64,000 nt of DNA from an uncultured Gammaproteobacteria bacterium (GCA_913045115.1 CAJWPJ010000003.1:854-64853); one strand, 5' to 3'; shown: positions 1,304 through 34,074, counted from the stretch's first letter. Numbers and translations are program-made. The notes: a model not told the origin generated them from the letters alone.

Positions 1304-1948
1304 TTGATTTATTACAATTATGTGAAAAAAATAGCTCCTGATGTAAATAACATTAATCTTTCATGTGCTAGAACAATATTAATGACGAGTGATAAGTTAA
1401 CTTTTAAGGAAATCTGTAATAAAAAAAATATACCTAATCCGGATTTATTTGATTTATTTACAGGTAACAAGCTATATATTGAGAAAGATAGAACTGGTTG
1501 CGGATCTACAAATGTTAGAATAGTCAAAGATAATAAGTCTTATAAAAATGATAGAATTATTGAAAAATATATACCAGGATCTAGCTTCAGTATTAGCTTG
1601 CATGTTACTCACAAAAGCTATCATATAATGTCAATTAATAGACAAATAATTCAAAAGAAAAAAAATCATATTAAATTGAAGGCATTAGTGGTTAATATCT
1701 ATCCTTCATTTAAAAATCATTTATATAATTTTGTTGAGAATATTTTGAACGCTTTTCCAAAACTTAGAGGATTTATTGGTTTAGATTTTATTGAGTACAA
1801 AGGAGAGCTATTTTTAATTGAAATAAATTCAAGATATACAACTTCCATGTCTCTAATTGAAAGATGCAAGAAAAAGAATCCATTAGATTACATATGTGAC
1901 AGAGGAAAAAACATAGCAGGAAAATCATGTCGATTAGAACTAATTTAA
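1304..1948 (+). CDS. ATP-grasp domain protein (MfnD/MptN-like ligase). At 214 aa it looks short on the N-terminal side
   Basis: C-terminal GELFLIEINSRYTTS resembles the ATP-grasp LIEIN(P/S)R motif. The protein begins at the central domain and sits inside the cofactor-biosynthesis island. Confidence 0.5.
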   Translation: MIYYNYVKKIAPDVNNINLSCARTILMTSDKLTFKEICNKKNIPNPDLFDLFTGNKLYIEKDRTGCGSTNVRIVKDNKSYKNDRIIEKYIPGSSFSISLHVTHKSYHIMSINRQIIQKKKNHIKLKALVVNIYPSFKNHLYNFVENILNAFPKLRGFIGLDFIEYKGELFLIEINSRYTTSMSLIERCKKKNPLDYICDRGKNIAGKSCRLELI

Positions 1949-2976
1949 TTAAGATAGGATGGGATCTAGGTGGTGCACACATAAAGTACTGCGTTGAATC
2001 CCAAGCATCAAATATAATTTGGTACGATATAATACATTTCGATTTTTGGAAAGATTACTCAAAACTAAGCGCCCTAATTATAGATATTTGTAAACAATAT
2101 CATGAAAAAGGAGCATTAATAGAAAACTATTTTACAATGTCAGCTGAGATGTGTGATTGTTTTGAGAACAGAAGTGCTGGCGTAAAATATATTCTCAATC
2201 AGATAAAAAAAATTAAATATAGCTCATATATTTTTTCAAAGAGTGGGTTAAGTAAGCTAGACAATAAGTATAAAATTTATCCAGATAAAGTTGGATCCTA
2301 TAATTGGTATGCTTCAGCCCTATATATATCAACACTTATTGATAATGTAATTCTAATTGATTTTGGGTCTACCACCTGTGACTTTTCAATAATAAAAAAT
2401 GGGAAAATTCTTAACAAAAGGACCTCAGATATAGATGGAATGTTAACTGGGGAACTTTTATATACTGGCTGTTCAAGGACACCAATATATGCGCACATCA
2501 ATCAAATAAGATTTGGAAATAGAATTTATAATATTATCCCAGAAAACTTTTCTTCTATGTCAGATGTTAATATAATTTTGGGTAAGTTAAACAAGCAAGA
2601 TGTTTATTCAAAATCGTCAGATGGATCAAATCATTCTTTGCTGCAGTCATACAAACGAATCTGTAGATCATTTGGGTTTGATTATAATAGCTCTATGAAA
2701 AAACTCGTGAATCATCTATGCTTGAAAATCTATGATGCTCAAGTTGATTTGATCAATAAGACATTATCCCTCCACTGTCATAAATATTTTAGGGACTCTA
2801 AATATAATATTGTTGGGCTAGGATTAGGATCGAAAATTATTATGAATATGTGTAAGCAGAATAGATATGACTATATAGATGTAAGAGATATACTAAATGA
2901 TACTATAGTAAATGGTGATTATTTATCGAATCTTTTTCCTGCATTCGTTTTAAATAGGTTAAGCAATGAGTTATAA
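1927..2976 (+). CDS. Hydantoinase/oxoprolinase-like ASKHA-fold protein of the H4MPT-linked C1-transfer pathway family
   Basis: N-terminal IGWDLGGAHIKY is an actin/hydantoinase-like phosphate-1 motif. The family assignment (one_C_unchar-type) comes from the neighbouring MfnB/DUF447/DHPS-like genes. Confidence 0.45.
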   Translation: MSIRTNLIKIGWDLGGAHIKYCVESQASNIIWYDIIHFDFWKDYSKLSALIIDICKQYHEKGALIENYFTMSAEMCDCFENRSAGVKYILNQIKKIKYSSYIFSKSGLSKLDNKYKIYPDKVGSYNWYASALYISTLIDNVILIDFGSTTCDFSIIKNGKILNKRTSDIDGMLTGELLYTGCSRTPIYAHINQIRFGNRIYNIIPENFSSMSDVNIILGKLNKQDVYSKSSDGSNHSLLQSYKRICRSFGFDYNSSMKKLVNHLCLKIYDAQVDLINKTLSLHCHKYFRDSKYNIVGLGLGSKIIMNMCKQNRYDYIDVRDILNDTIVNGDYLSNLFPAFVLNRLSNEL

Positions 2977-4318
2977 ATTACATCCACTAGATTTTTCAAT
3001 TCCATCTGAACAGGTCTTTGAGAGCATTAAGAATGAGGATTGGTCTGTATTTTTGAATAGTAACAACAAAAAGTATACCGATCAGAGATTTGACATACTA
3101 TCTGCTAGTCCTAAACAAAAAATTATATTTTCTGATGATAGCGCTTATCTTATAAATAAAAATGAAGAACCAAAAAAAACTGAATTATGTCCATTTGAAT
3201 TATTAAGAGAAGTCATGAGTAAGTACAAATCTAATTGTGATACTGATATACCATTCTCTGGTGGCGCAATAGGTTATATATCTTATGATTATGGCAACTA
3301 TTTACATAATATTGAGAATAAAAATAATCATTTCAATCAACCTCTTTTGGCATTTGGTATTTATGATTGGGCTGTTATCTATGATTATGCTCTTGAAAAA
3401 TCATTCCTCTTATACCATGAAAAAAATTCTATAACTGAAAATATTATAAATAATAATAAGAAGAGTCTTGATTCTAATGTAATGCCTTTTCAGATCACAT
3501 CTAGATGTGAGTCGAATATGAACTATGATTTATATGAAATGAAGCTTCTTAAAATCTTAGAATATATAAGAGCCGGAGATTGCTATCAAGTGAATCTATC
3601 TCAGATGTTTACACTTAGTTATGAAGGGAACGAATATGAGTTATATAAAAACCTAAACAAATCCTTTGCTTCACCTTACTCTGCATATATGAATTATCCA
3701 TTTGGAAAGATCTTATCTTTCTCCCCTGAAAGATTCTTATCTATCAAGAATAATATTGTTGAAACTAAGCCTATTAAGGGCACTAGACCAAGGTCAGATG
3801 ATCCAAACATAGATAAAAAAAATATAGAAGATCTAGAATCATCTCAGAAAGATAGAGCAGAGAATCTAATGATAGTAGACTTACTAAGGAACGATTTAGG
3901 AATGAATTGTAAAAAGGGCAGTGTTAAAGTAGATAAGCTTTTTGATATAGAAACTTTTGCAAATGTACATCATTTAGTAAGCACAATTCATGCAGAAATA
4001 GATAGTGAATCAAATATTTATAATCTTATCAAAGATGCATTTCCGGGCGGTTCTATCACTGGCGCACCTAAGTTAAGAGCAATGCAAATTATCCATGAAC
4101 TTGAGCCTAATAATAGATCTATTTATTGTGGATCAATCGGTTATATTAGTTTTGATGAGAAAACAGACTTTAATATTTCTATAAGATCCATGATCTCTAA
4201 AGACAATAACTTATACTTCTGGGGCGGGGGTGGTATAGTATACGACTCTGATATTCGAAGTGAATATAATGAGACAATATCTAAAGTCAAACCACTTCTT
4301 GATATATTCTCTGATTAA
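2966..4318 (+). CDS. pabB: Chorismate-binding enzyme, aminodeoxychorismate synthase component I (PabB-like)
   Basis: C-terminal FPGGSITGAPKLRAMQIIHELEP...IYCGSIGYISFD matches the TrpE/PabB signature. Length 450 aa. Confidence 0.7.
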   Translation: MSYKLHPLDFSIPSEQVFESIKNEDWSVFLNSNNKKYTDQRFDILSASPKQKIIFSDDSAYLINKNEEPKKTELCPFELLREVMSKYKSNCDTDIPFSGGAIGYISYDYGNYLHNIENKNNHFNQPLLAFGIYDWAVIYDYALEKSFLLYHEKNSITENIINNNKKSLDSNVMPFQITSRCESNMNYDLYEMKLLKILEYIRAGDCYQVNLSQMFTLSYEGNEYELYKNLNKSFASPYSAYMNYPFGKILSFSPERFLSIKNNIVETKPIKGTRPRSDDPNIDKKNIEDLESSQKDRAENLMIVDLLRNDLGMNCKKGSVKVDKLFDIETFANVHHLVSTIHAEIDSESNIYNLIKDAFPGGSITGAPKLRAMQIIHELEPNNRSIYCGSIGYISFDEKTDFNISIRSMISKDNNLYFWGGGGIVYDSDIRSEYNETISKVKPLLDIFSD

Positions 4319-4991
4319 TAAGTTTGAAATTTTTTAAGATATCCTGACATATCATTGAATCAATATCTTCTCGTTTTGAATTAGAGCATAACGCTCCACG
4401 CAAACCTATAAAATCTGGTTGTAGAGAAAGCACATCTTCAAATTTAGTTGGTGTAATAGATCCTGATATCCCACAGAATTTGCCAGACTTCTTGCATGAC
4501 TCCACAAAAAACTTCAATGTGTCTCTTGTTAAAATATCTAGTGTAGATTGGTTGTTTTTTGAAACAGTGTCTATCATAAGCCCATCATAATTTAACTTAA
4601 GTATATTTTCTAGTTCCTGCTCATTATTTATCAAGTCTGCAAATATCACACCAACAGTTTTGATAGACAATTTTTTTATTGATTTTAAAAAAATAGAATG
4701 TTGTTGTAACAAGTTGTTATCGAATATTCCTATCTTTATATATTCGATACCCAAATGCTCTAATAACTCTACTCTTCTCAATTGTTCTTTTGTTAGTGGG
4801 CTAGAGTCGTTACCCGCAGTAACACTTAATGTACGACCACTAAATATTTCAGTAATTTTTTTTAAAGAGTTATCTCCGACGTAACCAAGTGCACCATCGT
4901 TTACGTTCTTAATGTCAATTATGTCAAAGTCAAATTTAGACATTATCTCAGCTTCATTTTCGTCTTTAATACTAGCTAGGATCTTAGTCAT
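4287..4991 (-). CDS. mfnB: (5-formylfuran-3-yl)methyl phosphate synthase family protein (MfnB/DUF556)
   Basis: N-terminal KILASIKDENEAEIMSKFDFDIIDIKNVNDGALG, an internal IKIG, and GISGSI...DFIGLRGALC at the C-terminus match the MfnB/DUF556 family. Length ~234 aa. Confidence 0.65.
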   Translation of the reverse strand: MTKILASIKDENEAEIMSKFDFDIIDIKNVNDGALGYVGDNSLKKITEIFSGRTLSVTAGNDSSPLTKEQLRRVELLEHLGIEYIKIGIFDNNLLQQHSIFLKSIKKLSIKTVGVIFADLINNEQELENILKLNYDGLMIDTVSKNNQSTLDILTRDTLKFFVESCKKSGKFCGISGSITPTKFEDVLSLQPDFIGLRGALCSNSKREDIDSMICQDILKNFKLINQRIYQEVV

Positions 4992-5556
4992 TTTTAAAAT
5001 AGCTATTAATTTTATCTTCTATCCAGCTCCATGCTTGCTTCTCATTCTCCCCAGCTGTTTTATCTATGCCTATTTTTAAATACTCATACTCTCTCTTGAC
5101 TTTATCATCATCTATCATGCCTAATCTTGTTGAGAGAACAGCTAATTCAATGACTGAAAATTGGGCCCTATTAAATCCCATAAAGGGTCTTAGATTCTGC
5201 GTGTTTTGGATATAACAAATGATTTTAGGTCTTAGTTCATCTTCTAAAATACTTGATACCTTCAAGTTCATATATGAATTTGTATTAGATAGATGTGCAA
5301 CTTCATCCTTCGGTTGATGATTCAAATCCCATTTCTTCTTCTTGCCTGTAACTATTCCGGCAAACACCTTGACATCGTCTATGTAATTTATTGTAGCTTT
5401 TTTAGTATTGATAAGATTCTCTAATGTCTGTGACGGTTTGAATGGTGATATTTGAACACACTCCTGACTTTCATGATCAATGAACTTAATTCCCATAGGA
5501 GCAATATGTACTCGATTATCTTCATCTACCGTTGTAACAATTACTTCATGAATCAT
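4984..5556 (-). CDS. DUF447 family protein; MfnF/orf21-like and cofactor-biosynthesis associated
   Basis: 190-aa protein overlapping the MfnB-like and DHPS-like genes by 8 and 4 nt. The adjacency DUF447-DUF556 is typical of methanofuran/H4MPT islands. Confidence 0.45.
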   Translation of the reverse strand: MIHEVIVTTVDEDNRVHIAPMGIKFIDHESQECVQISPFKPSQTLENLINTKKATINYIDDVKVFAGIVTGKKKKWDLNHQPKDEVAHLSNTNSYMNLKVSSILEDELRPKIICYIQNTQNLRPFMGFNRAQFSVIELAVLSTRLGMIDDDKVKREYEYLKIGIDKTAGENEKQAWSWIEDKINSYFKND

Positions 5557-6935
5557 TTTCTTTTTTTGAAGGTTGGCCCTAATTCTTTACTCTGGAGTTT
5601 ATTATCAACTTTTTTATCAACTAAGCAACCCCATCCTAACTCTTCATCTTGTTGATATTCTTTTTTTAATTGATATGCAATTTGAGCTCTTGCTAATTCT
5701 ACTCCTAAATAAAAGGCATGTCCCGAGTCATTACTTATCTCTAGATGCTCATAGAAATCAAATGGATCAGCAAAAATCTTATATATATTTTTGTTAAATA
5801 AATGAATGCCATCATCATTCACATATATCCTATAATTTTTATCTTTAATATTACTTTGCATCTCAATGAGTTCATCAGAGCAAAGTGCATAATCTTTATG
5901 CCCATGATTTACTAAAAGACCATCATTAATATGTTTAGGTGTTAAGTTATTTTCAGATGCCGCATGAATAATTCTTCTTGCAAGATCTGTCTCTCTGATA
6001 ACAGTTGAACAATGTCTGCTCACTTGCGTGGTTAGTATATGATTAAGTTTGAGTTCTTCAATGATGCCTAGCATAATCATGTTTATCCCAGAGGTATCAG
6101 CATGCGTTAGTTCTGTTATGTTGCCAAGTCCTATCATAATATGAATGTCAGGATATTTTTCTCTTAGGCTTACGTATCTCATTAAGCTTTCTGTGAAGCC
6201 ATACGATATTGGATCAAGTATAGGATCAGCAATGAATATTAATTTATCGTCTATAGCGCGATCAACTAGCTTATAAAACTCAGGTATATTATTTTCTGTT
6301 GGAATCAAAATCGGATATGAATCTAAATTTTCAAGTATATGGTATGTTTCTGCTTTGATACTTAGTAGATAATCAGCACCTGCTTTTGAGCCTCGAATAA
6401 GCTCGTCAGTATTATGTGAGTCAATGCTAACGTAAAAATTTCTGCTCTTTAGCTCTTGGACAATCTCTTCAAGATGAGGAAAGTGTTTGTTTGGTAAACA
6501 GCCCACATCAATTACATCTGCACCCTCAGATCTGAAGTATTCTGCTTTTTGAATGACTTGATCAACAGTCATATTTAGTGCATCTGTTATTTCTCCAAAT
6601 ATTGATGTTTCAAATTTTGAAAGGTCATACTTTACTGGCTTTGCTCCAAAGAGAAGGGGTAAATCTTTGAGTTCATCTGGACCTCTAGTAATCTTTTTTC
6701 TTATGTTATTTTCAAGTATTTTGATATCACCTCTTACTCTTCCAGGTATGATTATCTCATCAAAGCCATCCACATTACCGATTCTCCTTTCGATCATTTC
6801 AGTAGTTAGGAGTGCTGCAACATTTACATTTAAGTTTCTTATTTCATATGAAAAGTTCTTATCTTCTATACTATCAATTACTGTTTTAAGACCTTTCTCT
6901 GCTAATTTCCCAGTTATGAATAGAATGTTTTTCAT
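5553..6935 (-). CDS. Dihydropteroate synthase-like pterin-binding protein with an N-terminal extension (MptH/orf20-like)
   Basis: Contains SEGADVIDVGCLPN, which resembles the DHPS pterin-binding motif (DIIDVGGEST). Length 460 aa, longer than FolP. It is operonic with the DUF447, MfnB and flavoprotein genes. Confidence 0.55.
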   Translation of the reverse strand: MKNILFITGKLAEKGLKTVIDSIEDKNFSYEIRNLNVNVAALLTTEMIERRIGNVDGFDEIIIPGRVRGDIKILENNIRKKITRGPDELKDLPLLFGAKPVKYDLSKFETSIFGEITDALNMTVDQVIQKAEYFRSEGADVIDVGCLPNKHFPHLEEIVQELKSRNFYVSIDSHNTDELIRGSKAGADYLLSIKAETYHILENLDSYPILIPTENNIPEFYKLVDRAIDDKLIFIADPILDPISYGFTESLMRYVSLREKYPDIHIMIGLGNITELTHADTSGINMIMLGIIEELKLNHILTTQVSRHCSTVIRETDLARRIIHAASENNLTPKHINDGLLVNHGHKDYALCSDELIEMQSNIKDKNYRIYVNDDGIHLFNKNIYKIFADPFDFYEHLEISNDSGHAFYLGVELARAQIAYQLKKEYQQDEELGWGCLVDKKVDNKLQSKELGPTFKKRK

Positions 6936-7462
6936 TTAGCTAGCTTTGTAAGATTATTTTTTAAAGATTTAACATTATCAACAACAATTACATTCTTAAA
7001 TTTTTTAAGAGCTCTATAGTTTTTGAGGTCAATATCTCTTGGGTATAATGTTACGAGTTTTTTTGGTGCTTGCGTAATTACAATAGGCTCTGTGTCACAG
7101 GCAAAAACTAATGACTTCACCTCACATTTACCTGCCTGTGCAAACATATTAGTAACAAGGGTATCTGAGATGCCTTGTGCCATTAAAGCTATTGTGTTTG
7201 ATGTTGCTGGAGATATGACTACGAGTTTGTAGACTGATTCATATAATAAGCTAACTGGAGATGCACTTGATGTTACATCTCTAAAAATTTTAATTTTATT
7301 TTTTTTAAAAATAGATAAATCATAATCGTACCACTTTAGTACCTCTTCACCTGCTTTGCTTAAATATAAATCTACATTTTCAAAAGTTAGCATCAAATCT
7401 ATAGATTCTTTCAGGTAGTGACCTGAACCAGTTATACACCAAGCTATTCTTTTTTTATCCAT
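6932..7462 (-). CDS. Flavoprotein of the AfpA/DmrX (dihydromethanopterin reductase-like) or HFCD family
   Basis: 176 aa. N-terminal KRIAWCITGSGHYL is a flavodoxin-like FMN-binding start. Its position between MobA and the DHPS-like gene supports the call. Confidence 0.45.
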   Translation of the reverse strand: MDKKRIAWCITGSGHYLKESIDLMLTFENVDLYLSKAGEEVLKWYDYDLSIFKKNKIKIFRDVTSSASPVSLLYESVYKLVVISPATSNTIALMAQGISDTLVTNMFAQAGKCEVKSLVFACDTEPIVITQAPKKLVTLYPRDIDLKNYRALKKFKNVIVVDNVKSLKNNLTKLAK

Positions 7463-9858: not shown

Positions 9859-9886
9859 TTGATAACTTCAACGTTAATCATATAAT
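9859..9886 (+). promoter_or_regulatory. Sigma70-type promoter for rnpB
   Basis: TTGATA at 9859-9864, a 16-nt spacer, then TATAAT at 9881-9886, 6-7 nt upstream of the RNase P RNA 5' end. Confidence 0.5.
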
Positions 9887-9892
9887 ACCTTT

Positions 9893-10222
9893 GAGAGTTG
9901 GTTATACAGTCGCTATGTTAAGGCATAGAGGAAAGTCCGGGCTCCGGGGATAAAAGCGCCAGGTAACACCTGGGAAACGTGAGTTTTGGAAAGTGCTGCA
10001 GAAAATAACCGCCTACTTTTTGTAGGTAAGGGTGAAAAGGTAGAGTAAGAGCCTACCGCTGCTAAGGTAACAAGGCAGGCATAAGTAAACCCCGCTTGGA
10101 GCAAGGCAAATTTGTGATTCATCCCGCTATAATCACATGGTTGCTGCTACTGAGATTATTGGTGACAATAATTCAAGATAAATGGCTGTACACGACAGAA
10201 CCCGGCTTATCAACTGACTCTC
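9893..10222 (+). ncRNA. rnpB: RNase P RNA (rnpB), bacterial type A
   Basis: GGAAAGTCCGGGCTCC (P4 5' strand) at ~9929, AGGGTGAAA...GTAAGAGC in the middle, and ACAGAACCCGGCTTATC (P4 3' strand) at ~10195. The 5' end GAGAGTTGGTTAT can pair with the 3' end ATCAACTGACTCTC to form P1. Confidence 0.9.
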
Positions 10223-10342
10223 ATCCTTTAACATAATTCTATAAGTAATTGATTTATAAATATATTTAATAAATTGATTATCCCTAATATTCATGAATTT
10301 AGCTATATATTAGCTTGCATAAATTAAAAATAGGGCATATAG

Positions 10343-10376
10343 TGTTGATAAATGGCATTATTTGTTATTTTGTGGA
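10343..10376 (+). promoter_or_regulatory. Putative MraZ operator: four direct pentamer repeats at ~10-bp period
   Basis: TGTTG (10343), TGGCA (10353), TTGTT (10362) and TGTGG (10371), just upstream of the likely mraZ start codon. They are reminiscent of MraZ boxes (GTGGG/TGGGN spaced 10 bp). Confidence 0.3.
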
Positions 10377-10381
10377 GAATT

Positions 10382-10843
10382 ATGGAGAATCTTTTTAAAG
10401 GTATACACAATCTTAGTCTCGATTCAAAGGGTAGACTGGGTATCCCCGTGACATACCGTGACCATATTATGGGCCTTCTCAAAGGGTCTATGGTAATTAC
10501 AATTGATACAGAAGAAAGATGCCTTCTTCTATACCCAGCGAATATCTGGTCTAAAATACAAGATAAAATCAGTAACTTACCATCATTTAATAAAAACGCG
10601 CGAAGGATTCAAAGACTTTTAGTAGGACATGCAGAGGATATTGATGTTGATTCTAGTGGAAGAATTTTAATATCTAGGCCACTTAGAGAGTATGCATCAT
10701 TATCAAAGAAAATAATCCTTATTGGTCAAGGTGAGAAATTTGAGATTTGGGATCAAAACTCATGGAACACAAATGTTGAGAAGTGGCGAGAGGAGGCGAC
10801 GTCTGTTGACGATGAACAAGCACTCAGTGATTTAAGCATATGA
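10382..10843 (+). CDS. mraZ: Transcriptional regulator MraZ
   Basis: [22 protein letters not shown] and a second DSSGRILI repeat match the MraZ duplicated DxxxR/KGR motif. The ORF track starts at 10352, but I take the true start as the Met at 10382. Confidence 0.85.
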
Positions 10844-11034
10844 TAACTAATAACAAATATAAAATACTAGGAGTCAGCGAGAGCGATGATATATCGGTAA
10901 TTAAATTGGCATTTAGAAAATTAGCATCTAGGCATCATCCTGATAAAAACAATGACAGCATTGAGTCAAATAAAATATTCATACAAATCAAGTCGGCTTA
11001 CGAAAGCATATTGGAATCTAAGAAAAATGAATAA
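10840..11034 (+). CDS. Stand-alone J-domain (DnaJ-like) protein, 64 aa
   Basis: [31 protein letters not shown]...[11 protein letters not shown] is a canonical J domain with the HPD motif. The start overlaps the mraZ stop (ATGA) and the stop overlaps the rsmH start (ATGAATAA). Confidence 0.6.
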
Positions 11035-11956
11035 TACTGATTACCATATACCCGTGATGAAGCACGAGGCGGTAGAACAGTTGCTGTCAAATAATGATGG
11101 TATATATGTCGATGCAACTCTTGGGTATGGAGGTCATACAAGGTTAATTCTGGAGAAAACTTCATCTAAATCTAAACTATATGGAATCGATAAAGATATT
11201 GATGCCATTGAATTTAACAAGAAAGAATTAGCACAAGAGAAGAGGTTTACCCTTAAACATGGATGTTTTTCTTCTCTTGATGAATATGCAAAAACCTGGA
11301 ATATATATGGATCTGTAAACGGCATTTTATTTGATTTAGGAGTGTCATCTGTTCATCTTGATAGTGCAGATAGAGGCTTTAGCTTTAATAAAAATGCGCC
11401 TTTGGATATGAGATTTGATAGAACACACGGAAAATGTGTCTCACAGTTAATAAATGAACTTCCTGAGAGCGAAATCGAGTCTATTTTAAAACTGTATGGT
11501 CAAGAAAAGTTTTCTAGAAGAATAGCTAAAAATATTATCAAGCATAGGTCTAATAATCCTATCGAGAATACGCTTGAGCTTGTGGATATCATCAATAAAT
11601 CTGTCATTGTTAACGATAAGAATAAACATAACGCAACGCGATCTTTTCAAGCACTAAGGATATTTGTAAATAAAGAACTTGATGTCCTTAGAGAAGTGCT
11701 TCATAAATCATATAATATTCTCGCCCCAAAAGGGAGGCTGGTGTTAATAACTTATCACTCTTTAGAGGAAAGAGTCATAAAGGATTTCATTATATTTTGT
11801 GATAACAATCAAAACACACCTAGAAAGATGCCAATAAAGAAAGATTTCTTAAAAAAGATGTTTACGGTAATAAAAAAAGTTAAACCATCTGACAAAGAGA
11901 TATCTTTAAACCCCAGATCCAGATCTGCAAAAATTAATGTCCTGGAGAAGCAGTAA
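11027..11956 (+). CDS. rsmH: 16S rRNA (cytosine1402-N4)-methyltransferase RsmH
   Basis: [16 protein letters not shown]...DATLGYGGH...[20 protein letters not shown] start the gene at the ATG at 11027; the tracked ORF extends upstream to 10952. Confidence 0.85.
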
Positions 11957-12225
11957 TGAATCTAACATCCTCATTTCTTTTAATAATTCTTATAACTATG
12001 TCTGCATTTAGTGTAATTTTTATCAAATATCAAAATAGGATGTTAAATATCGAAATTTCTAAAAATGAAAAAAAGTTATTTTACCTTTCTGAGTCTTATA
12101 GAAAGTTACTTCAGAAAAAAATTGAAATTACAGATAGTAGGCTGCAAAAAAGTAGCTTGGGTAAGGCGCTAAATATGCAACTTCCATCAAAAGAAAGAAT
12201 TTTAATCATGAACGTAGAACGCTAG
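11956..12225 (+). CDS. ftsL: Cell division protein FtsL
   Basis: 89 aa with an N-terminal TM helix followed by a coiled-coil region. Position after rsmH fits. It ends with a TAG stop. Confidence 0.7.
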   Translation: MNLTSSFLLIILITMSAFSVIFIKYQNRMLNIEISKNEKKLFYLSESYRKLLQKKIEITDSRLQKSSLGKALNMQLPSKERILIMNVER

Positions 12226-12234
12226 GAGGACACC

Positions 12235-13383
12235 ATGTTTGAAATAGTTAATAATTATAATCAAAATGCAGTTATCAAAGTTATTGGTGTTGGAGGTGGT
12301 GGCGGAAACGCTATTATATCAATGCTAAAGTCTCAAATACATGGGGCAGATTTTTTGATTGCAAACACAGACGTACAAGCGTTAAGGGATGTAGACGGAG
12401 CCACAACCGTCCAAATCGGTTCTGAGATAACAAAAGGATTGGGTGCAGGCGCTGATCCTGAGAAGGGGCGCCAAGCTGCACTCGAAGCTAGTGAAACTCT
12501 AAGAGAGTCTATTGAAGGAGCTGACATGCTGTTCATTGCTGCCGGGATGGGCGGAGGAACTGGTACAGGAGCTGCTCCAGTAATTGCTCAAATCGCACGT
12601 GATCTTGGTATTCTTACTGTAGCGGTTGTTACAAAACCCTTCGATTTTGAGGGCCCTGAAAGAATGTCAAATGCTCAAGAAGGGATAAATAATCTTGAAC
12701 AATGGGTCGATTCTTTAATTGTGATACCGAACTCAAAGTTGAAAGAAGTCTATGGAGGAAATGAGTCAATATTTTCTTCTTTCGAGAATGCTAATGATGT
12801 TTTGAGAGGAGCCGTGAAAGGTATTACAGAGATAATTACTATAAGAGGGTTTATGAATGTGGACTTTGCTGACGTAAAAACTGTCATGTCAGGTATGGGT
12901 AAAGCAATGATGGGATCCGGAGTATCATCTGGAGAAAATAGAGCCGAAGAAGCAGTGACAACAGCATTGAGCAGTCCCTTATTAGATAATATAGATCTTC
13001 AGGGTGCTAGCGGAGTACTTGTTAATATTACTTCCGGATCTGATTTAACGACGGATGAGTTTGAGGTGATTGGAAGTAAAATTAGAGAGATAGCTAACGA
13101 AGACGCTAAGATAATTACTGGCTGTATTAAAGAAGATGATAATATTGGAGATCTTAGAGTTACAATAATTGCAACTGGATTCGCTCAATCTGGTTCTGTT
13201 GATACTCAGTTGATGGAAGCAAATTCAAATGATGCAGAAATTAACACTTTAAATAACCAAAATTCATCAATATTGTCTGGTAACGACATCAATAAAGTGG
13301 ATACTCCTCAAGTAAACTTAAATCAACAAGAGGATCAGACATCACTTGATATACCGGCATTTTTAAGACAACAGGCCGATTAA
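12235..13383 (+). CDS. ftsZ: Cell division GTPase FtsZ
   Basis: Contains VIGVGGGGGNA and the tubulin signature GGGTGTGAAPVIA. A strong SD (AGGAGG) sits 7 nt upstream. Confidence 0.95.
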   Translation: MFEIVNNYNQNAVIKVIGVGGGGGNAIISMLKSQIHGADFLIANTDVQALRDVDGATTVQIGSEITKGLGAGADPEKGRQAALEASETLRESIEGADMLFIAAGMGGGTGTGAAPVIAQIARDLGILTVAVVTKPFDFEGPERMSNAQEGINNLEQWVDSLIVIPNSKLKEVYGGNESIFSSFENANDVLRGAVKGITEIITIRGFMNVDFADVKTVMSGMGKAMMGSGVSSGENRAEEAVTTALSSPLLDNIDLQGASGVLVNITSGSDLTTDEFEVIGSKIREIANEDAKIITGCIKEDDNIGDLRVTIIATGFAQSGSVDTQLMEANSNDAEINTLNNQNSSILSGNDINKVDTPQVNLNQQEDQTSLDIPAFLRQQAD

Positions 13384-15094
13384 TAATAATCCTAAATCTG
13401 AGACTTTAAGGCTGCTGTTATTTATAACAGCAGCTTTAGTTTTATTTTTACTGATAGTAACTAGATTATATTATATTCAAATCCAAGGAACTGATTGCTT
13501 CTTCTTCAATGAGAGTTCATGTAAGCAAAATATTTCTATTGAGGCAAAAAAAAGACAGATTCATAATCAGGTTATAAAAGCAGAAAGAGGAGTAATTTTT
13601 GACAGAAACAAAAATATACTAGCAATGTCACTTCCTGCGAAAACGCTATGCATTAATCCAAATAAACTCCATCGCAATGAAAATAAATCAGATGTTCATG
13701 AGTTATCAAAGCTATTAAACATTCCATATGATAAATTAGTGAAGATTATCGATAGAAATAAAAATAAAAAGGAATATTTTCTCAAACGGCATATCTCAAA
13801 AGAAACCTATGTTGAAATAAACAAATTATCTACCCCAAATATTTATTTTATTAATGAGAATAAAAGATCTTATTTAGGAGGCGAGGCTTTCTCAAACATA
13901 ATAGGTTTTACAGATATAGATGATAATGGTCAGGAAGGAATTGAGTTAGTAAATAACAATATTCTCAAGCCCTCGAATGGTTCTAAAATAATAAAAATGG
14001 ATAATATTGGAAGACCAATTGAAACGATTGAGGTAACTAAAAAGTCTATTCCTGGAGAAAATTTAATATTAACTCTTGATAAGAGAATTCAGATAATTGC
14101 ATATGATGTACTAAAAAAATATGTCAACAAATATAAGGCAGAGAGCGGGTCTATTGTCCTTGTAGAGTCAAACACAGGCAATATCTTATCTATGGCAAAC
14201 TACCCATCTTTTGATCCAAAAAAAAGATATACTTACAAAGGTATTAAAATTAAGAATAGGGCAGTTTATGATCTAATAGAGCCTGGATCTACTATCAAAC
14301 CTTTTATAATTTATGCAGGTTTGAAAAATAAGATTATTGATGAATCGACTATAATTAGGACTGCTCCAGGAGTCATCAAACTTGCTGATAATGAAATTAA
14401 AGATTGGAAATACCTTGGCGATGTCTCTGCGGAGGATATTATAAAGCTATCCAGTAACATAGGTGCAGCGAAAATATCTAGAAAGCTTGCAAAAACAGAA
14501 CTCACGCGTACTCTTGATTCATTTGGTTTTGGACAGTCATTATTTCTGAATTTGCCAGGCTCTAAGAATGGATCAATACCATCACCTACCAATATTAATG
14601 ACTCAAAGCATTTCAGCATTGGTTATGGTTATGGTTTATCTGTGTCATTGATGCATCTTGTCAGTGCATATAATATATTAGCTAATGATGGAGCCTATAT
14701 TCAATTAAAGTATCTTAGAAATACAGAAATAGATGACAGTAAACATCAAATTTTAGATAAGAAACTCAGTGGTCAAGTCCTAAAAATGATGAAAGAAGTT
14801 GTTCATTCGCATGATGGGACTGGTAAAAAAGCAGCAGTTGATGGTTATTCTGTATATGGTAAAACAGGAACGGTCCGTAAGATAAAAAATGGAAAATACA
14901 ATAAAAATTTACATAATGCATTATTTATAGGAATACTAGGTGATCCATCGCCAAAATATGTAGCTGCTGTAATAATTAGAGAACCCAAAGACAGAGAGGG
15001 CTCCGGTGGGTATCATGCTGCACCTGTTTTCGGTGAATTTCTTCAACACTCAATGAGAATTTTAGATGACATTAAGTATGCGGGAAAACAATAA
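13379..15094 (+). CDS. ftsI: Peptidoglycan D,D-transpeptidase FtsI (PBP3); the 5' end is uncertain
   Basis: The tracked ORF (13625-15094) contains the SxxK-type motif AVYDLIEPGSTIKP, SSN and KTG. The in-frame sequence upstream, open from 13367, encodes the expected TM anchor LRLLLFITAALVLFLLIV and the conserved ERGVIFDRNKNILA, but has no ATG, GTG or TTG. ATT at 13379 is one candidate start. Confidence 0.8.
   Translation: MNNNPKSETLRLLLFITAALVLFLLIVTRLYYIQIQGTDCFFFNESSCKQNISIEAKKRQIHNQVIKAERGVIFDRNKNILAMSLPAKTLCINPNKLHRNENKSDVHELSKLLNIPYDKLVKIIDRNKNKKEYFLKRHISKETYVEINKLSTPNIYFINENKRSYLGGEAFSNIIGFTDIDDNGQEGIELVNNNILKPSNGSKIIKMDNIGRPIETIEVTKKSIPGENLILTLDKRIQIIAYDVLKKYVNKYKAESGSIVLVESNTGNILSMANYPSFDPKKRYTYKGIKIKNRAVYDLIEPGSTIKPFIIYAGLKNKIIDESTIIRTAPGVIKLADNEIKDWKYLGDVSAEDIIKLSSNIGAAKISRKLAKTELTRTLDSFGFGQSLFLNLPGSKNGSIPSPTNINDSKHFSIGYGYGLSVSLMHLVSAYNILANDGAYIQLKYLRNTEIDDSKHQILDKKLSGQVLKMMKEVVHSHDGTGKKAAVDGYSVYGKTGTVRKIKNGKYNKNLHNALFIGILGDPSPKYVAAVIIREPKDREGSGGYHAAPVFGEFLQHSMRILDDIKYAGKQ
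13411..13450 (+). terminator. Rho-independent terminator-like hairpin downstream of ftsZ
   Basis: GCTGCTGTTA (13411-13420), a TTTA loop, then TAACAGCAGC (13425-13434), followed by the T-rich tract TTTAGTTTTATTTTTA. Confidence 0.5.
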
Positions 15095-26166: not shown

Positions 26167-27411
26167 ATGAGCAATGTAAAAAGCACTGATACTCTTGTTG
26201 CATTAGACATAGGCACATCTAAAGTCTTATGCTTGGTAGCTGATATTGATGATAAAGGCGATTTAAGAATCATCGGCATAGGCAATGAACCATGCACAGG
26301 ACTCAATAAAGGTGTTATTTCAGAAATAGATGCTACTGTTTCAAGTATCAGGCGCGCAAAAGAAAAAGCCAGCTCAATGTCTACATGTAACATTCAATCT
26401 GTTACCACAGGTATCGCTGGTAATCATATTCAAAGTTACAATGGCAATGGTGCGGTGAATATTTTGAATGATGAGGTCACCTCTGAAGATAAGGAGGAAG
26501 TGCTAAATAATGCCCAAAATATTCAAATTCCAAAAGATCAAGAAATACTTCACTCAATAGAACAGCATTATACAATCGATGGACAACCTGGTATCAGAGA
26601 ACCTTTAGGGATGGCTGGAGCTAGATTAGAGGCAAATGTTCATATTATTACTACGTCTTCAACAGCTAAAAGAAATCTTACGAAGTGCATAAATAACAGT
26701 TTACTAGAGATAGATGATTATGTCCTCCAACCAGTCGCGTCAAGTGAAGCTGTTCTATCTAATGAAGAACGTGACTTAGGCGTCTGTTTAATTGATATTG
26801 GTTGTGGCACAACGGATATAGCAATTTTTACAGATGGGACAATTAAACATACCGCTGTGATTCCCATTGGAAGTCAAATGATTACTAATGACATTAGAAT
26901 AATATTATGCACATCATTAGATGCTGCAGAAGAAATAAAGATACAATATGGGGCAGTGTCTTCTGATAACGATGTGGATGTGAAAATTCCTGTCCCATCT
27001 GTCTCTGACAAGCCAGATACTGAGACAACTAAAACGATTCTGACTCAAATAATATCTGCACGAGTTAACGAAATATTTGATGCAATACAAAAAGAAATCC
27101 ATAATAGCGGTTACTCAGGTAAAATCAGAGCAGGGATAGTATTTACTGGTGGAGGAGCAAAGCTTGAAGGCTTGGACAGTTTTGCTGAATCTTATTTTCA
27201 AAAACCTTCAAGAATCGGCTCTCCAAAATCAATTAAGGGGCTTGAGGATCTACGTGGTAAAACGAGGTATTCTACTGCCGTTGGTTTGCTCTTATACCGA
27301 CAAAGGGGGCTTAGCCTGTTGGCGTCAAAAAATAAGTATACCTCCAAAATTGGCTCTATCCTTGATAAATACGCAAAAAAACTGTCCAATTATTTCCAAA
27401 AAGAACTTTAA
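26167..27411 (+). CDS. ftsA: Cell division protein FtsA
   Basis: Actin-like ATPase with LVALDIGTSKV and VFTGGGAKLEGL. Confidence 0.9.
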   Translation: MSNVKSTDTLVALDIGTSKVLCLVADIDDKGDLRIIGIGNEPCTGLNKGVISEIDATVSSIRRAKEKASSMSTCNIQSVTTGIAGNHIQSYNGNGAVNILNDEVTSEDKEEVLNNAQNIQIPKDQEILHSIEQHYTIDGQPGIREPLGMAGARLEANVHIITTSSTAKRNLTKCINNSLLEIDDYVLQPVASSEAVLSNEERDLGVCLIDIGCGTTDIAIFTDGTIKHTAVIPIGSQMITNDIRIILCTSLDAAEEIKIQYGAVSSDNDVDVKIPVPSVSDKPDTETTKTILTQIISARVNEIFDAIQKEIHNSGYSGKIRAGIVFTGGGAKLEGLDSFAESYFQKPSRIGSPKSIKGLEDLRGKTRYSTAVGLLLYRQRGLSLLASKNKYTSKIGSILDKYAKKLSNYFQKEL

Positions 27412-27474: not shown

Positions 27475-28383
27475 ATGTTAAAACAGAGAACATTATCTAG
27501 TAGTATTACAGCAACAGGTGTTGGACTACATACTGGTAAGAAAATTAATTTGCGAATTAATCCAGGCCGGCCTGACAAAGGCATTATATTCATCCGTAAA
27601 GACATCTCAAGTGAGCCAATAGCTGCCTCATTGAAAAATGTCCATGACACGAGGCTGTCAACAACAATTTCAAACGGTGATGCATCCGTCTCAACCGTGG
27701 AACATTTATTATCTGCTCTAGCAGGTTTGGGCATAGACAATGCGACAATTGAGCTAGACGGTCCAGAGGTTCCGATTATGGATGGAAGTTCGCGTCCATT
27801 TGTTTTTTTAATTCAATCAGCAGGAATAAGCGAACAGAATCATCCAAAAAAATTTATCAAAATTACAAAAGATATTGAGGTTAAACAGAATGATAAGTGG
27901 GCAAAGATTGAACCGTATGATGGATTTAAGGTAGCCTTTACCATAGATTTTGATCATCCATCTTTCCCAAAAGAAACTCAAACTTCTACAATAGACTTCT
28001 CTACAATTTCCTATCTCAGCCAGGTAAGCCGCGCAAGGACTTTTGGATTTGCGAAAGATATCGAAAATTTAAGAAAAAATAATCTAGCGCTAGGCGGAAG
28101 CGTTAATAATGCAATTGTAATTGATGATTATAAAATCATAAATGAAGACGGATTGAGATATAAGGATGAATTTGTAAAACATAAGATACTCGATGCTATA
28201 GGAGATTTATACCTACTAGGACATAGCTTGATAGGGTCTTTTTCTGCATTTAAGTCTGGTCATCATCTTAATAATCTCTTGCTGAGAGAGCTCATAAATA
28301 ATGAAAATGCATGGGAGCAAGTAATCATAGAAGAGGAGGAAAAGTCTCCGATACTTTTCACACACGTCACTGAGTCTATCTAA
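27475..28383 (+). CDS. lpxC: UDP-3-O-acyl-N-acetylglucosamine deacetylase LpxC
   Basis: [24 protein letters not shown] and HHLNN near the C-terminus. Confidence 0.9.
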
Positions 28384-33312: not shown

Positions 33313-34074
33313 CTATATGTAGCATAGGTCGATCACAAATGTTATGTCATCCTTAAGCTGTATAAATTTATTATTATCATTAAGAGTCATAAATGAAATA
33401 GTAGCTCTCTGTGGACCAACACTTACTCTTGGAAAAAAATAATTATCAGAATGCATAGTAATTCTTAACAGACGAACTTTTTTATCTGGATCTAGTTTAA
33501 AAATATGAATTCCGTTCTGAGCACATTCTTCTCGAGTCTCTGAGCTTTTTCTAAGTATATCCAGACAAAAATATATAGAATTTTCTATTGGTTTAATTTT
33601 TTCTTGCCACAAATTAATCTGATTACATCTAAACGTATAATCTCTGGTGAGCCAATAATCTAGCTCAGAACTCAAAGTATCATAGTGTTTTACACAATGC
33701 TGAAATAATTCATCATTATGCAACTCAGTTAAGTAATTTGCTTGAAGGTTATGTAATGTATTTAGAATAACATTCTGCTTTTCCATAATTGAATTTAATT
33801 TAATTTTATCTGACCCTTCTATTTTTACATATTCTATATAGCGTGATTTATGAAAATCAATTTCTCTAATGAGTTCTCTTTTCACTTCAGCTCTTGATAG
33901 CATTTGGTATAAACTGATTAAATTATATAGGGCTGCAAAGGAATCATAAGAGTTATCAATATCTTTATGCTTATTTATTTTTAAGAAGTAACTTTCTAGT
34001 TTAAGAAACTTTCTAATACGTTCATCAACTGGCTCCTCATATATTGCTGCATGAGTATCTGAAAAACTATTCAT
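33313..34074 (-). CDS. zapD: Cell division protein ZapD
   Basis: 253 aa. The coaE-zapD order on the minus strand next to mutT matches the E. coli yacG-zapD-coaE locus. Confidence 0.65.
   Translation of the reverse strand: MNSFSDTHAAIYEEPVDERIRKFLKLESYFLKINKHKDIDNSYDSFAALYNLISLYQMLSRAEVKRELIREIDFHKSRYIEYVKIEGSDKIKLNSIMEKQNVILNTLHNLQANYLTELHNDELFQHCVKHYDTLSSELDYWLTRDYTFRCNQINLWQEKIKPIENSIYFCLDILRKSSETREECAQNGIHIFKLDPDKKVRLLRITMHSDNYFFPRVSVGPQRATISFMTLNDNNKFIQLKDDITFVIDLCYI

Follow-up and report, generated by a model that had tools for sequence, protein, structure and literature searches.

In bacteria, J proteins are usually encoded beside their Hsp70, a modulator or a client, as in dnaK-dnaJ, hscB-hscA-iscU and cbpA-cbpM. 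The closest characterized relative of the protein considered here is AtcJ of Shewanella oneidensis (NF050028, atcJABC), a stand-alone J protein whose functional J domain carries the histidine-proline-aspartate (HPD) motif, has no glycine/phenylalanine-rich (G/F), zinc-finger or C-terminal domains, and shares an operon with its working partners, which makes it the nearest earlier case of a small J protein that serves partners from its own operon (PMC6715715). Links between chaperones and the division machinery have also been described. GroESL supports FtsA/FzlA in Caulobacter, and the clients of DnaK include MreB and MurA (PMC8262945); in plastids and cyanobacteria, ARC6/ZipN (Ftn2) carries the one established J-type domain in the FtsZ-ring machinery (PMC6391411; bioRxiv 10.1101/2024.01.08.574726). 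Here we describe a stretch of 64,000 nucleotides of DNA from an uncultured Gammaproteobacteria bacterium (GCA_913045115.1, CAJWPJ010000003.1:854-64853; hereafter the window), in which a gene for a J-domain-only protein of 64 aa, which we call mini-J, lies between mraZ and rsmH in the division and cell wall (dcw) cluster. Few gene pairs in bacteria are as conserved as mraZ-rsmH, yet what the two genes do at the front of the division operon is still little understood.

An earlier note on this DNA had proposed that a co-chaperone regulated together with MraZ and the division machinery would be an undescribed link between chaperones and septation. This was an overstatement, given what is known of GroESL with FtsA/FzlA (PMC8262945) and of ARC6/ZipN. 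J-only proteins and links between chaperones and division are already known in kind, and it is for a mini-J in the mraZ-rsmH slot that we have found no prior description: no paper was found that brings a J domain together with mraZ, rsmH or dcw, although a bacterial J-protein survey may list the family among its class-C orphans.

The mini-J protein

The open reading frame (ORF) at 10840-11034 on the plus strand is exactly where the earlier note had placed it, with an ATG start, a TAA stop and 64 codons for amino acids. In a hidden Markov model search the product matches the Pfam DnaJ family (PF00226) with 55 bits (E 9e-15, cut-off 27.8) over profile positions 3-58 of 63, and the J-domain assignment is far beyond chance. 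The description of the product as a textbook J domain needs one correction: the domain is incomplete, and helix IV is missing. The same note was correct in stating that nothing else is present: a protein of 64 aa has here no G/F region, no CxxCxGxG zinc finger and no C-terminal client-binding domains.

Comparison with NCBIfam leads to the same view. Mini-J matches only the opening ~60 positions in models of the DnaJ type, or the J segment of other J proteins, and all of its scores are far under the family cut-offs. Two class A DnaJ models gave 45.8 against a cut-off of 377.2 (TIGR02349) and 50.5 against 338 (PRK10767), with only the first 58-62 profile positions matched; the DjlA model gave 37.7 against 162, and the CbpA model 32.1 against 403. 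Mini-J is therefore to be regarded as a J domain, and not as a member of DnaJ, CbpA, DjlA, AtcJ or TopJ. A phmmer search against all PDB sequences returned J-domain-containing chains, including 1bqz and 5nro_B. The alignment of mini-J with Escherichia coli DnaJ is ungapped from residue 4 to residues 61-62 of the solved J-domain constructs, and the shared HPD numbering in our own alignment puts the end of mini-J at about DnaJ residue 64.

An AlphaFold2 model made on 17 family sequences (predicted local distance difference test score 81.5) has three helices, namely helix I at aa 3-10 (10846-10869), helix II at aa 18-31 (10891-10932) and helix III at aa 41-63 (10960-11028); the HPD motif is at aa 33-35 (10936-10944), and all of these coordinates are on the plus strand. 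In the model, helices II and III form an antiparallel hairpin on which helix I is packed, as in other J domains. It has no fourth helix, and the protein ends where helix IV would begin. In a Foldseek search of the PDB every match listed contains a J domain (probability 1.00, template modeling score 0.57-0.77), and the model fits 5nro_B, the DnaJ J domain bound to DnaK, with a root-mean-square deviation of 1.0 Å over 50 columns. As modeled, then, mini-J is a truncated, three-helix J domain that still belongs to the J-domain family. Helix IV has been reported to be mobile, weakly packed and held mainly by one tyrosine, and the proposal has been made that DnaJ can function without it (PMC1906734, PMC5679652); for this reason its absence is no argument against binding to Hsp70. 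Mini-J has no transmembrane segment.

The residues through which a J domain meets DnaK can be compared directly. In DnaJ, the residues R22, K26, R27, K48 and K51 position the J domain on DnaK, and H33, P34 and D35 contact the linker, the β-subdomain of the substrate-binding domain, and R167/Q378 of DnaK (PMC8215388). In the mini-J family, position 22 is K in 100% of members, position 26 is R or K in 86%, and positions 27 and 51 are K or R in 100%, so that the basic surface facing DnaK is present. Position 48, which is Ile in 93%, is the only altered basic contact position. The HPD motif, whose lack of conservation the earlier note had named as grounds for refutation, shows no variation in two alignments of 24 and 17 family members, the ~40%-identical lineages among them. 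Across the two main subfamilies the invariant residues are M1, L10, G11, D17, I21, K22, K27, A29, H33, P34 and D35, together with K36, D39, F47, K51, A53, Y54, E55 and I57.

Conservation of the gene and its slot

An index of public assemblies has the protein, with all 64 aa identical, in 113 blocks, and the 23 contigs that were read, which come from marine metagenomes of Tara Oceans, JGI and ENA, show the same neighbors every time. A misassembled junction, which had been named as one way in which the gene might be spurious, is ruled out because the same protein and the same neighbors are found in many independent metagenome assemblies.

A scan for RsmH with one genome per species gave six gammaproteobacterial metagenome-assembled genomes (MAGs) or single-amplified genomes with 51-85% RsmH identity. 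All six have a J ORF of 64-65 aa between mraZ and rsmH and have ftsZ after ftsL, and the identity of their J proteins to mini-J drops to 34-42%. The next relative, an Alteromonadaceae MAG with 40% RsmH identity, has no J gene between mraZ and rsmH. Counting this MAG, there are 10 outgroup loci with both mraZ and rsmH, and none has a gene between them; the mraZ-to-rsmH gap at these loci is -22 to +65 nt, as against 183-193 nt in the mini-J clade. The slot is thus unusual, as the earlier note had asserted from the general conservation of gene order. A search for RsmH homologues aimed at the insertion boundary yielded no boundary, the matches listed being all relatives of at least 68% identity.

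The association of this type of J protein with the slot also holds on a much larger scale. An exhaustive profile search, run over 1.84 billion representative proteins, brought up ~80,000 J domains; among these representatives there are only about six 50%-identity clusters of full-length look-alikes of 64-66 aa, and all are located between mraZ and rsmH. Four of the clusters had not been placed before and were assigned to the slot by exact look-ups and tblastn; the contigs concerned have 30-34% GC. When metagenomes were scanned with the member that diverges most, longer contigs came up that read mraZ-J-rsmH-ftsL-ftsZ-ftsI, while 75 of the 80 loci in that scan had no mraZ or rsmH context and were set aside as probable generic J-domain matches. 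One member of the family has been annotated by NCBI merely as 'J domain-containing protein'. Taken as a whole, the mini-J clade is an abundant, uncultured, low-GC lineage of marine Gammaproteobacteria in which the 5′ dcw module is fixed. The SUP05/symbiont affiliation implied in the earlier note found no support, and a SAR86-like identity is no more than a guess from the 32% GC and the abundance in the surface ocean.

Some database entries required separate treatment. Four proteins with a canonical DnaJ N-terminus (P0018-P0020 and P0023) were considered as intermediates and rejected. The contigs of P0018 and P0020 are assembly chimeras. In chimeric contigs L048 (1-1149) and L049 (1-595), the 3′ end of dnaK and the 5′ end of dnaJ are followed by the 3′ half of the mini-J gene and by rsmH; the join is at the YHPDKN codons common to dnaJ and mini-J, and these chimeras turn up in protein databases as false family variants. 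P0019 and P0023 have the same composite sequence on contigs of at most 1.5 kb, and hence are presumed to be chimeras too. Two further entries, P0201 and P0212, carry junk tails. A phage origin of the gene was likewise rejected, since tblastn against 50,697 phage records gave only generic J-domain matches of at most 46% identity.

Selection was estimated by the Nei-Gojobori method as the ratio of nonsynonymous to synonymous substitution rates (dN/dS), in the two genome pairs in which synonymous sites are unsaturated. In the first pair (L007-L008) the ratio is 0.094 for the J gene, 0.095 for rsmH, 0.108 for ftsL, 0.099 for ftsZ and 0.008 for mraZ; in the second (L009-L012) it is 0.035 for the J gene, 0.034 for ftsL, 0.036 for ftsZ and 0.038 for mraZ, with no value for rsmH. 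The mini-J ratio is therefore close to that of most of its neighbors, mraZ being far lower in the first pair. At larger distances the proportion of synonymous differences is saturated, and that of nonsynonymous differences is 0.10-0.41. The earlier note had foreseen that the ORF might be absent or disrupted in close relatives; neither was seen, and the ORF is intact in all of them. Mini-J is a real gene under purifying selection. In one of the genomes compared, the long-read MAG JAYQJW01 (L012), rsmH at 4001-4925 is found as two tblastn pieces with a frame shift near 4536, which is probably a sequencing or polishing error rather than the mark of a pseudogene.

The gene is joined closely to its neighbors on both sides. 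The first dcw gene, mraZ (10382-10843, plus strand; PF02381 112.6 bits, TIGR00242 145.9 against a cut-off of 98.35), encodes 153 aa when read from the ATG at 10382, while the start of a longer ORF is at 10352; gene callers report 153 or 163 aa. Its stop overlaps the mini-J start as ATGA (10840-10843, plus strand). On the other side, rsmH (11027-11956, plus strand; PF01795 333.7 bits, TIGR00006 324.9 against a cut-off of 154.3), which encodes the 309-aa 16S rRNA m4C1402 methyltransferase, begins inside the last codons of mini-J: its ATG (11027-11029) is 8 nt inside the mini-J 3′ end, giving ATGAATAA at 11027-11034 on the plus strand. Both overlaps, as read from the window, agree with those given in the earlier note. 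Among the relatives, the mraZ/mini-J junction is ATGA in five genomes and TAATG in two, and other lineages have analogous abutting or overlapping junctions; at the mini-J/rsmH junction, ATGAATAA is kept in one subclade and ATGA is found in another (L010/L011). In all lineages both junctions overlap or abut, in forms that vary (ATGA with ATGAATAA, TAATG with ATGA, and others).

Such junctions fit coupling by termination and reinitiation. The claim that mini-J is translationally coupled is accordingly plausible as far as the overlaps go, but coupling is no special signature of this gene, because gene overlaps and missing Shine-Dalgarno motifs are the norm in the window. Among same-strand neighbor pairs 27 of 46 overlap, mostly by 1, 4 or 8 nt, and a Shine-Dalgarno-like motif (-22 to -5) precedes 14 of the 55 genes, that of mini-J not being one of them. 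We note that the genome, judged by the gene overlaps in the window, is strongly streamlined; its GC content is ~32%. A terminator scan of the plus strand from mraZ to the ftsZ stop found no terminator-like site except a weak one inside ftsZ.

The dcw cluster of the window is complete and has the order mraZ-J-rsmH-ftsL-ftsZ-ftsI-murE-murF-mraY-murD-ftsW-murG-murC-murB-ddl-ftsQ-ftsA-lpxC-secA, which departs from the canonical head, in which mraZ adjoins rsmH, ftsL adjoins ftsI, and ftsZ comes after ftsA. The move of ftsZ and the presence of mini-J occur together in every lineage with visible context (the window, L007-L012 and L050-L052).

Candidate functions

We tentatively propose that mini-J is a minimal class-C J-domain co-chaperone that directs DnaK to a product of its own operon. 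In this scenario, mini-J would be transcribed from the mraZ promoter within the 5′ dcw module mraZ-J-rsmH-ftsL-ftsZ; ribosomes leaving mraZ would translate mini-J, and the translation of mini-J would in turn feed rsmH. The protein would dock on ATP-bound DnaK through the basic residues 22, 26, 27 and 51 together with H33-P34-D35, and docking would trigger ATP hydrolysis and so lock DnaK onto a client. Mini-J would steer DnaK to an operon product, with MraZ, the oligomeric repressor encoded next to it, as the first candidate and with FtsZ and RsmH after that. The partner might be held on the face of the J domain that usually lies under helix IV, around Y7/I57, a placement suggested by homology with the Ydj1 contacts F7, Y8, I56 and L57 (PMC5679652). 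We infer each of these elements, that is, the expression with mraZ and rsmH, the binding of DnaK-ATP, the triggering of its ATPase and the identity of the partner.

What points to an operon product as the target is that J proteins usually adjoin their partners, and that the slot is invariant across deep divergence. The case of AtcJ, a very short J protein that acts on a partner from its own operon, offers a precedent (PMC6715715). There are also several points that weigh against the proposal. Mini-J has no extension past its J domain, and it is by such an extension, a 21-aa tail, that AtcJ binds its partner (PMC6715715). Family-specific positions are few (acidic 16-17, S/H30, I48, K/R51, I57 and K/R61), in comparison with a generic J-domain set that consists of the best matches of the mini-J family profile and is thus biased towards that family. 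The profile and HPD scans of the 64-kb window found no second J domain. Finally, strict synteny and overlaps are general in this streamlined genome, so that the slot may have been frozen by accident in the rearrangement by which ftsZ moved as well.

A possible if somewhat doubtful alternative is that mini-J is an untargeted, free J domain, which stimulates DnaK in trans, binds no client and scales with the expression of the dcw genes, its position in the operon being historical. Consistent with this are the lack of a client-binding module, the generic nature of nearly all conserved positions, the fact that synteny and overlaps are normal for the genome, and reports of bacterial class-C J proteins as short as 54 aa (PMC8215388). 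However, a free J domain would be expected to wander or to sit with dnaK, and the slot is instead invariant across J lineages that are ~40% identical. Experience with isolated J domains cuts both ways: Sahi and Craig reportedly found in 2007 that they rescue several yeast J-protein deletion phenotypes, whereas Karzai and McMacken are said to have found in 1996 that isolated DnaJ J domains are poor stimulators of DnaK without the G/F region.

It is unlikely, though worth stating, that mini-J serves as a dedicated adaptor through which DnaK becomes a stoichiometric working part of dcw control, with the partner of mini-J (MraZ, RsmH or FtsZ) lying in the vacant helix IV groove and being passed on to DnaK. 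In each round of operon expression, the MraZ repressor oligomer or FtsZ polymers would then be remodeled once by Hsp70, and the entry of ftsZ into the 5′ module would belong to the same re-engineering of division control. That mini-J makes up for unstable proteins in a reduced genome, as the earlier note suggested, is purely speculative.

Quite unlikely is a role as a modulator or competitor, in which mini-J would occupy the J-binding site of DnaK in competition with full-length DnaJ, shift DnaK off DnaJ-delivered clients such as sigma-32, and tune the heat-shock regulon with growth and division. Mini-J has the DnaK-binding face that this would call for and cannot deliver clients; however, phage Rki requires its C-terminal domain for such an effect (PMC3486835), and mini-J has none. 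Moreover, nothing ties the locus to rpoH or to heat-shock genes, and constant competition with DnaJ would probably be costly. We regard as improbable a link with ribosome biogenesis, by which mini-J would bring DnaK to late 30S assembly via RsmH or the 30S particle, at the point where RsmH methylates C1402. In all lineages rsmH starts within the J ORF, and DnaK/DnaJ reportedly assist E. coli 30S assembly, according to Maki, Southworth and Culver in 2003; but the coupling is just as tight on the mraZ side, and nothing specific was found, there being no clade-specific feature of RsmH among those looked for. Lastly, the idea that the ORF is non-functional, being an assembly artefact or a decaying dnaJ fragment kept as a translational bridge between mraZ and rsmH, can draw on the fact that some database variants (P0018 and P0020, and presumably P0019) truly are dnaK-dnaJ/mini-J chimeras, but it is effectively refuted by conservation data, namely the exact protein in 113 assembly blocks, the same context in 23 of 23 contigs read, dN/dS of 0.035-0.094, the invariant HPD, and a length of 64-66 aa across ~40%-identical proteins.

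What gives the proposal of an operon-directed co-chaperone its interest is that a lineage very abundant in ocean metagenomes keeps a predicted Hsp70-activating mini-protein between mraZ and rsmH across deep divergence. If mini-J acts on an operon product, it would provide a handle on the role of MraZ and RsmH and on the tie between chaperones and division. Among natural J-domain co-chaperones of defined context it would be the smallest, and it would inform how little of a J domain suffices; if untargeted, it would still serve as a clean example from nature of a free J domain.

The rearranged locus and the known systems

Downstream of rsmH, the plus strand encodes ftsL (11956-12225; 89 aa; PF04999 34.8 bits against a cut-off of 22.9) and then ftsZ (12235-13383; PF00091 and PF12327), which has been relocated between ftsL and ftsI and is preceded by a perfect AGGAGG Shine-Dalgarno sequence. 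Its usual slot, between ftsA (26167-27411) and lpxC (27475-28383), is an empty gap of 63 nt. A gene for the FtsZ-bundling protein ZapD (33313-34074, minus strand) is found next to coaE, a few kilobases downstream of the dcw cluster, so that at least one FtsZ accessory factor has been retained nearby.

The start of ftsI appears to be misplaced in current annotation. As called from the ATG at 13625, the protein has 489 aa and no transmembrane helix. The frame is open back to 13367, and the upstream codons encode a transmembrane helix (RLLLFITAALVLFLLIV) that is conserved in all relatives. The extension has no ATG, GTG or TTG in any of the relatives, but in every lineage there is an in-frame ATT at or just past the ftsZ stop (13379-13381 in the window), in a frame that varies relative to ftsZ. 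On these grounds ftsI probably starts at an ATT that is coupled to ftsZ and is cut short by gene callers. Just past the ftsZ stop, and inside the codons for the FtsI transmembrane helix, there is a hairpin (13406-13439) with a T-run that extends to 13449. RNAalifold on seven aligned genomes gives a hairpin of 14 pairs, nine of which have compensatory double changes. The hairpin and T-run resemble an intrinsic terminator in the window and in L050/L051, and the P0228 lineage, which was folded separately, has a GC-rich stem and then a T-run at the same place. The element may be an attenuator, or a 3′-end element or stabilizer of the mRNA, between the ftsZ module and ftsI-mur.

Upstream of mraZ, a candidate promoter (TTGCAT-17-TATAGT) and associated repeat motifs can be read at 10316-10392 on the plus strand, the promoter candidate scoring under the threshold of the promoter scan. 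Downstream of the promoter-like site are GGG/TGT/TGG motifs with a period of 10 nt, and a direct repeat, GTGGAGAATT/ATGGAGAATC, spans the mraZ ATG. By analogy with the MraZ boxes of E. coli, we take the repeat motifs at the mraZ start to be candidate MraZ operator boxes. Directly upstream of mraZ is the RNase P RNA (9894-10225; Rfam RF00010, 257.6 bits), and the best sigma-70-like promoter of the region precedes it (TTGATA-16-TATAAT, 9859-9886). A minus-strand ORF of 69 aa within the RNase P RNA (9913-10122), which some pipelines call, is probably spurious. Farther upstream, at 1304-7462, is a cluster of genes of the methanopterin/methanofuran cofactor type, with ATP-grasp_3, Hydantoinase_A, 4-HFC-P synthase, DUF447, DUF6513 (with a faint pterin-binding match), flavoprotein and NTP_transf_3 members. 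Such a cluster is unusual for a streamlined marine gammaproteobacterium, and it may help to place the taxon.

We return finally to the known systems. AtcJ differs from mini-J in that it has a four-helix J domain and an essential 21-aa tail that binds AtcC, and mini-J has neither (PMC6715715). Against the AtcJ model NF050028, mini-J scores 29.4 with a cut-off of 150, over positions 2-65 of 93; its operon is dcw and not atc, and there are no atcABC genes. Phage Rki was considered as the closest J-only analogue and dropped, because it has an essential C-terminal domain (PMC3486835). DjlA, CbpA, HscB and Rki share with the role proposed for mini-J a J domain that directs Hsp70 to a place or partner, and they are often encoded beside the partner, as in cbpA-cbpM. 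The targeting parts of these proteins are absent from mini-J, namely the membrane anchor of DjlA, the client-binding domains of CbpA and the IscU-binding domain of HscB, whose gene adjoins hscA.

ARC6/ZipN is large (798 aa in Anabaena) and membrane-anchored, and it tethers or regulates FtsZ directly, whereas mini-J is a soluble protein of 64 aa. How ZipN's N-terminal DnaJ-type domain should be assigned has been described as unclear (PMC6391411; bioRxiv 10.1101/2024.01.08.574726), and the J-like domain of ARC6 has no HPD and did not bind chloroplast Hsp70s, in contrast to the canonical HPD of mini-J. By its length, its want of a transmembrane segment and the presence of HPD, mini-J falls outside the ARC6/ZipN type. 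The best match in both sequence and structure is the J domain of DnaJ (1BQZ, 1XBL and 5NRO chain B). DnaJ goes on to helix IV, the G/F region, the zinc finger and the C-terminal client-binding and dimerization domains, whereas mini-J stops at about residue 64 and has Ile in place of K48; the HPD motif and the basic residues at positions 22, 26, 27 and 51 are common to both.

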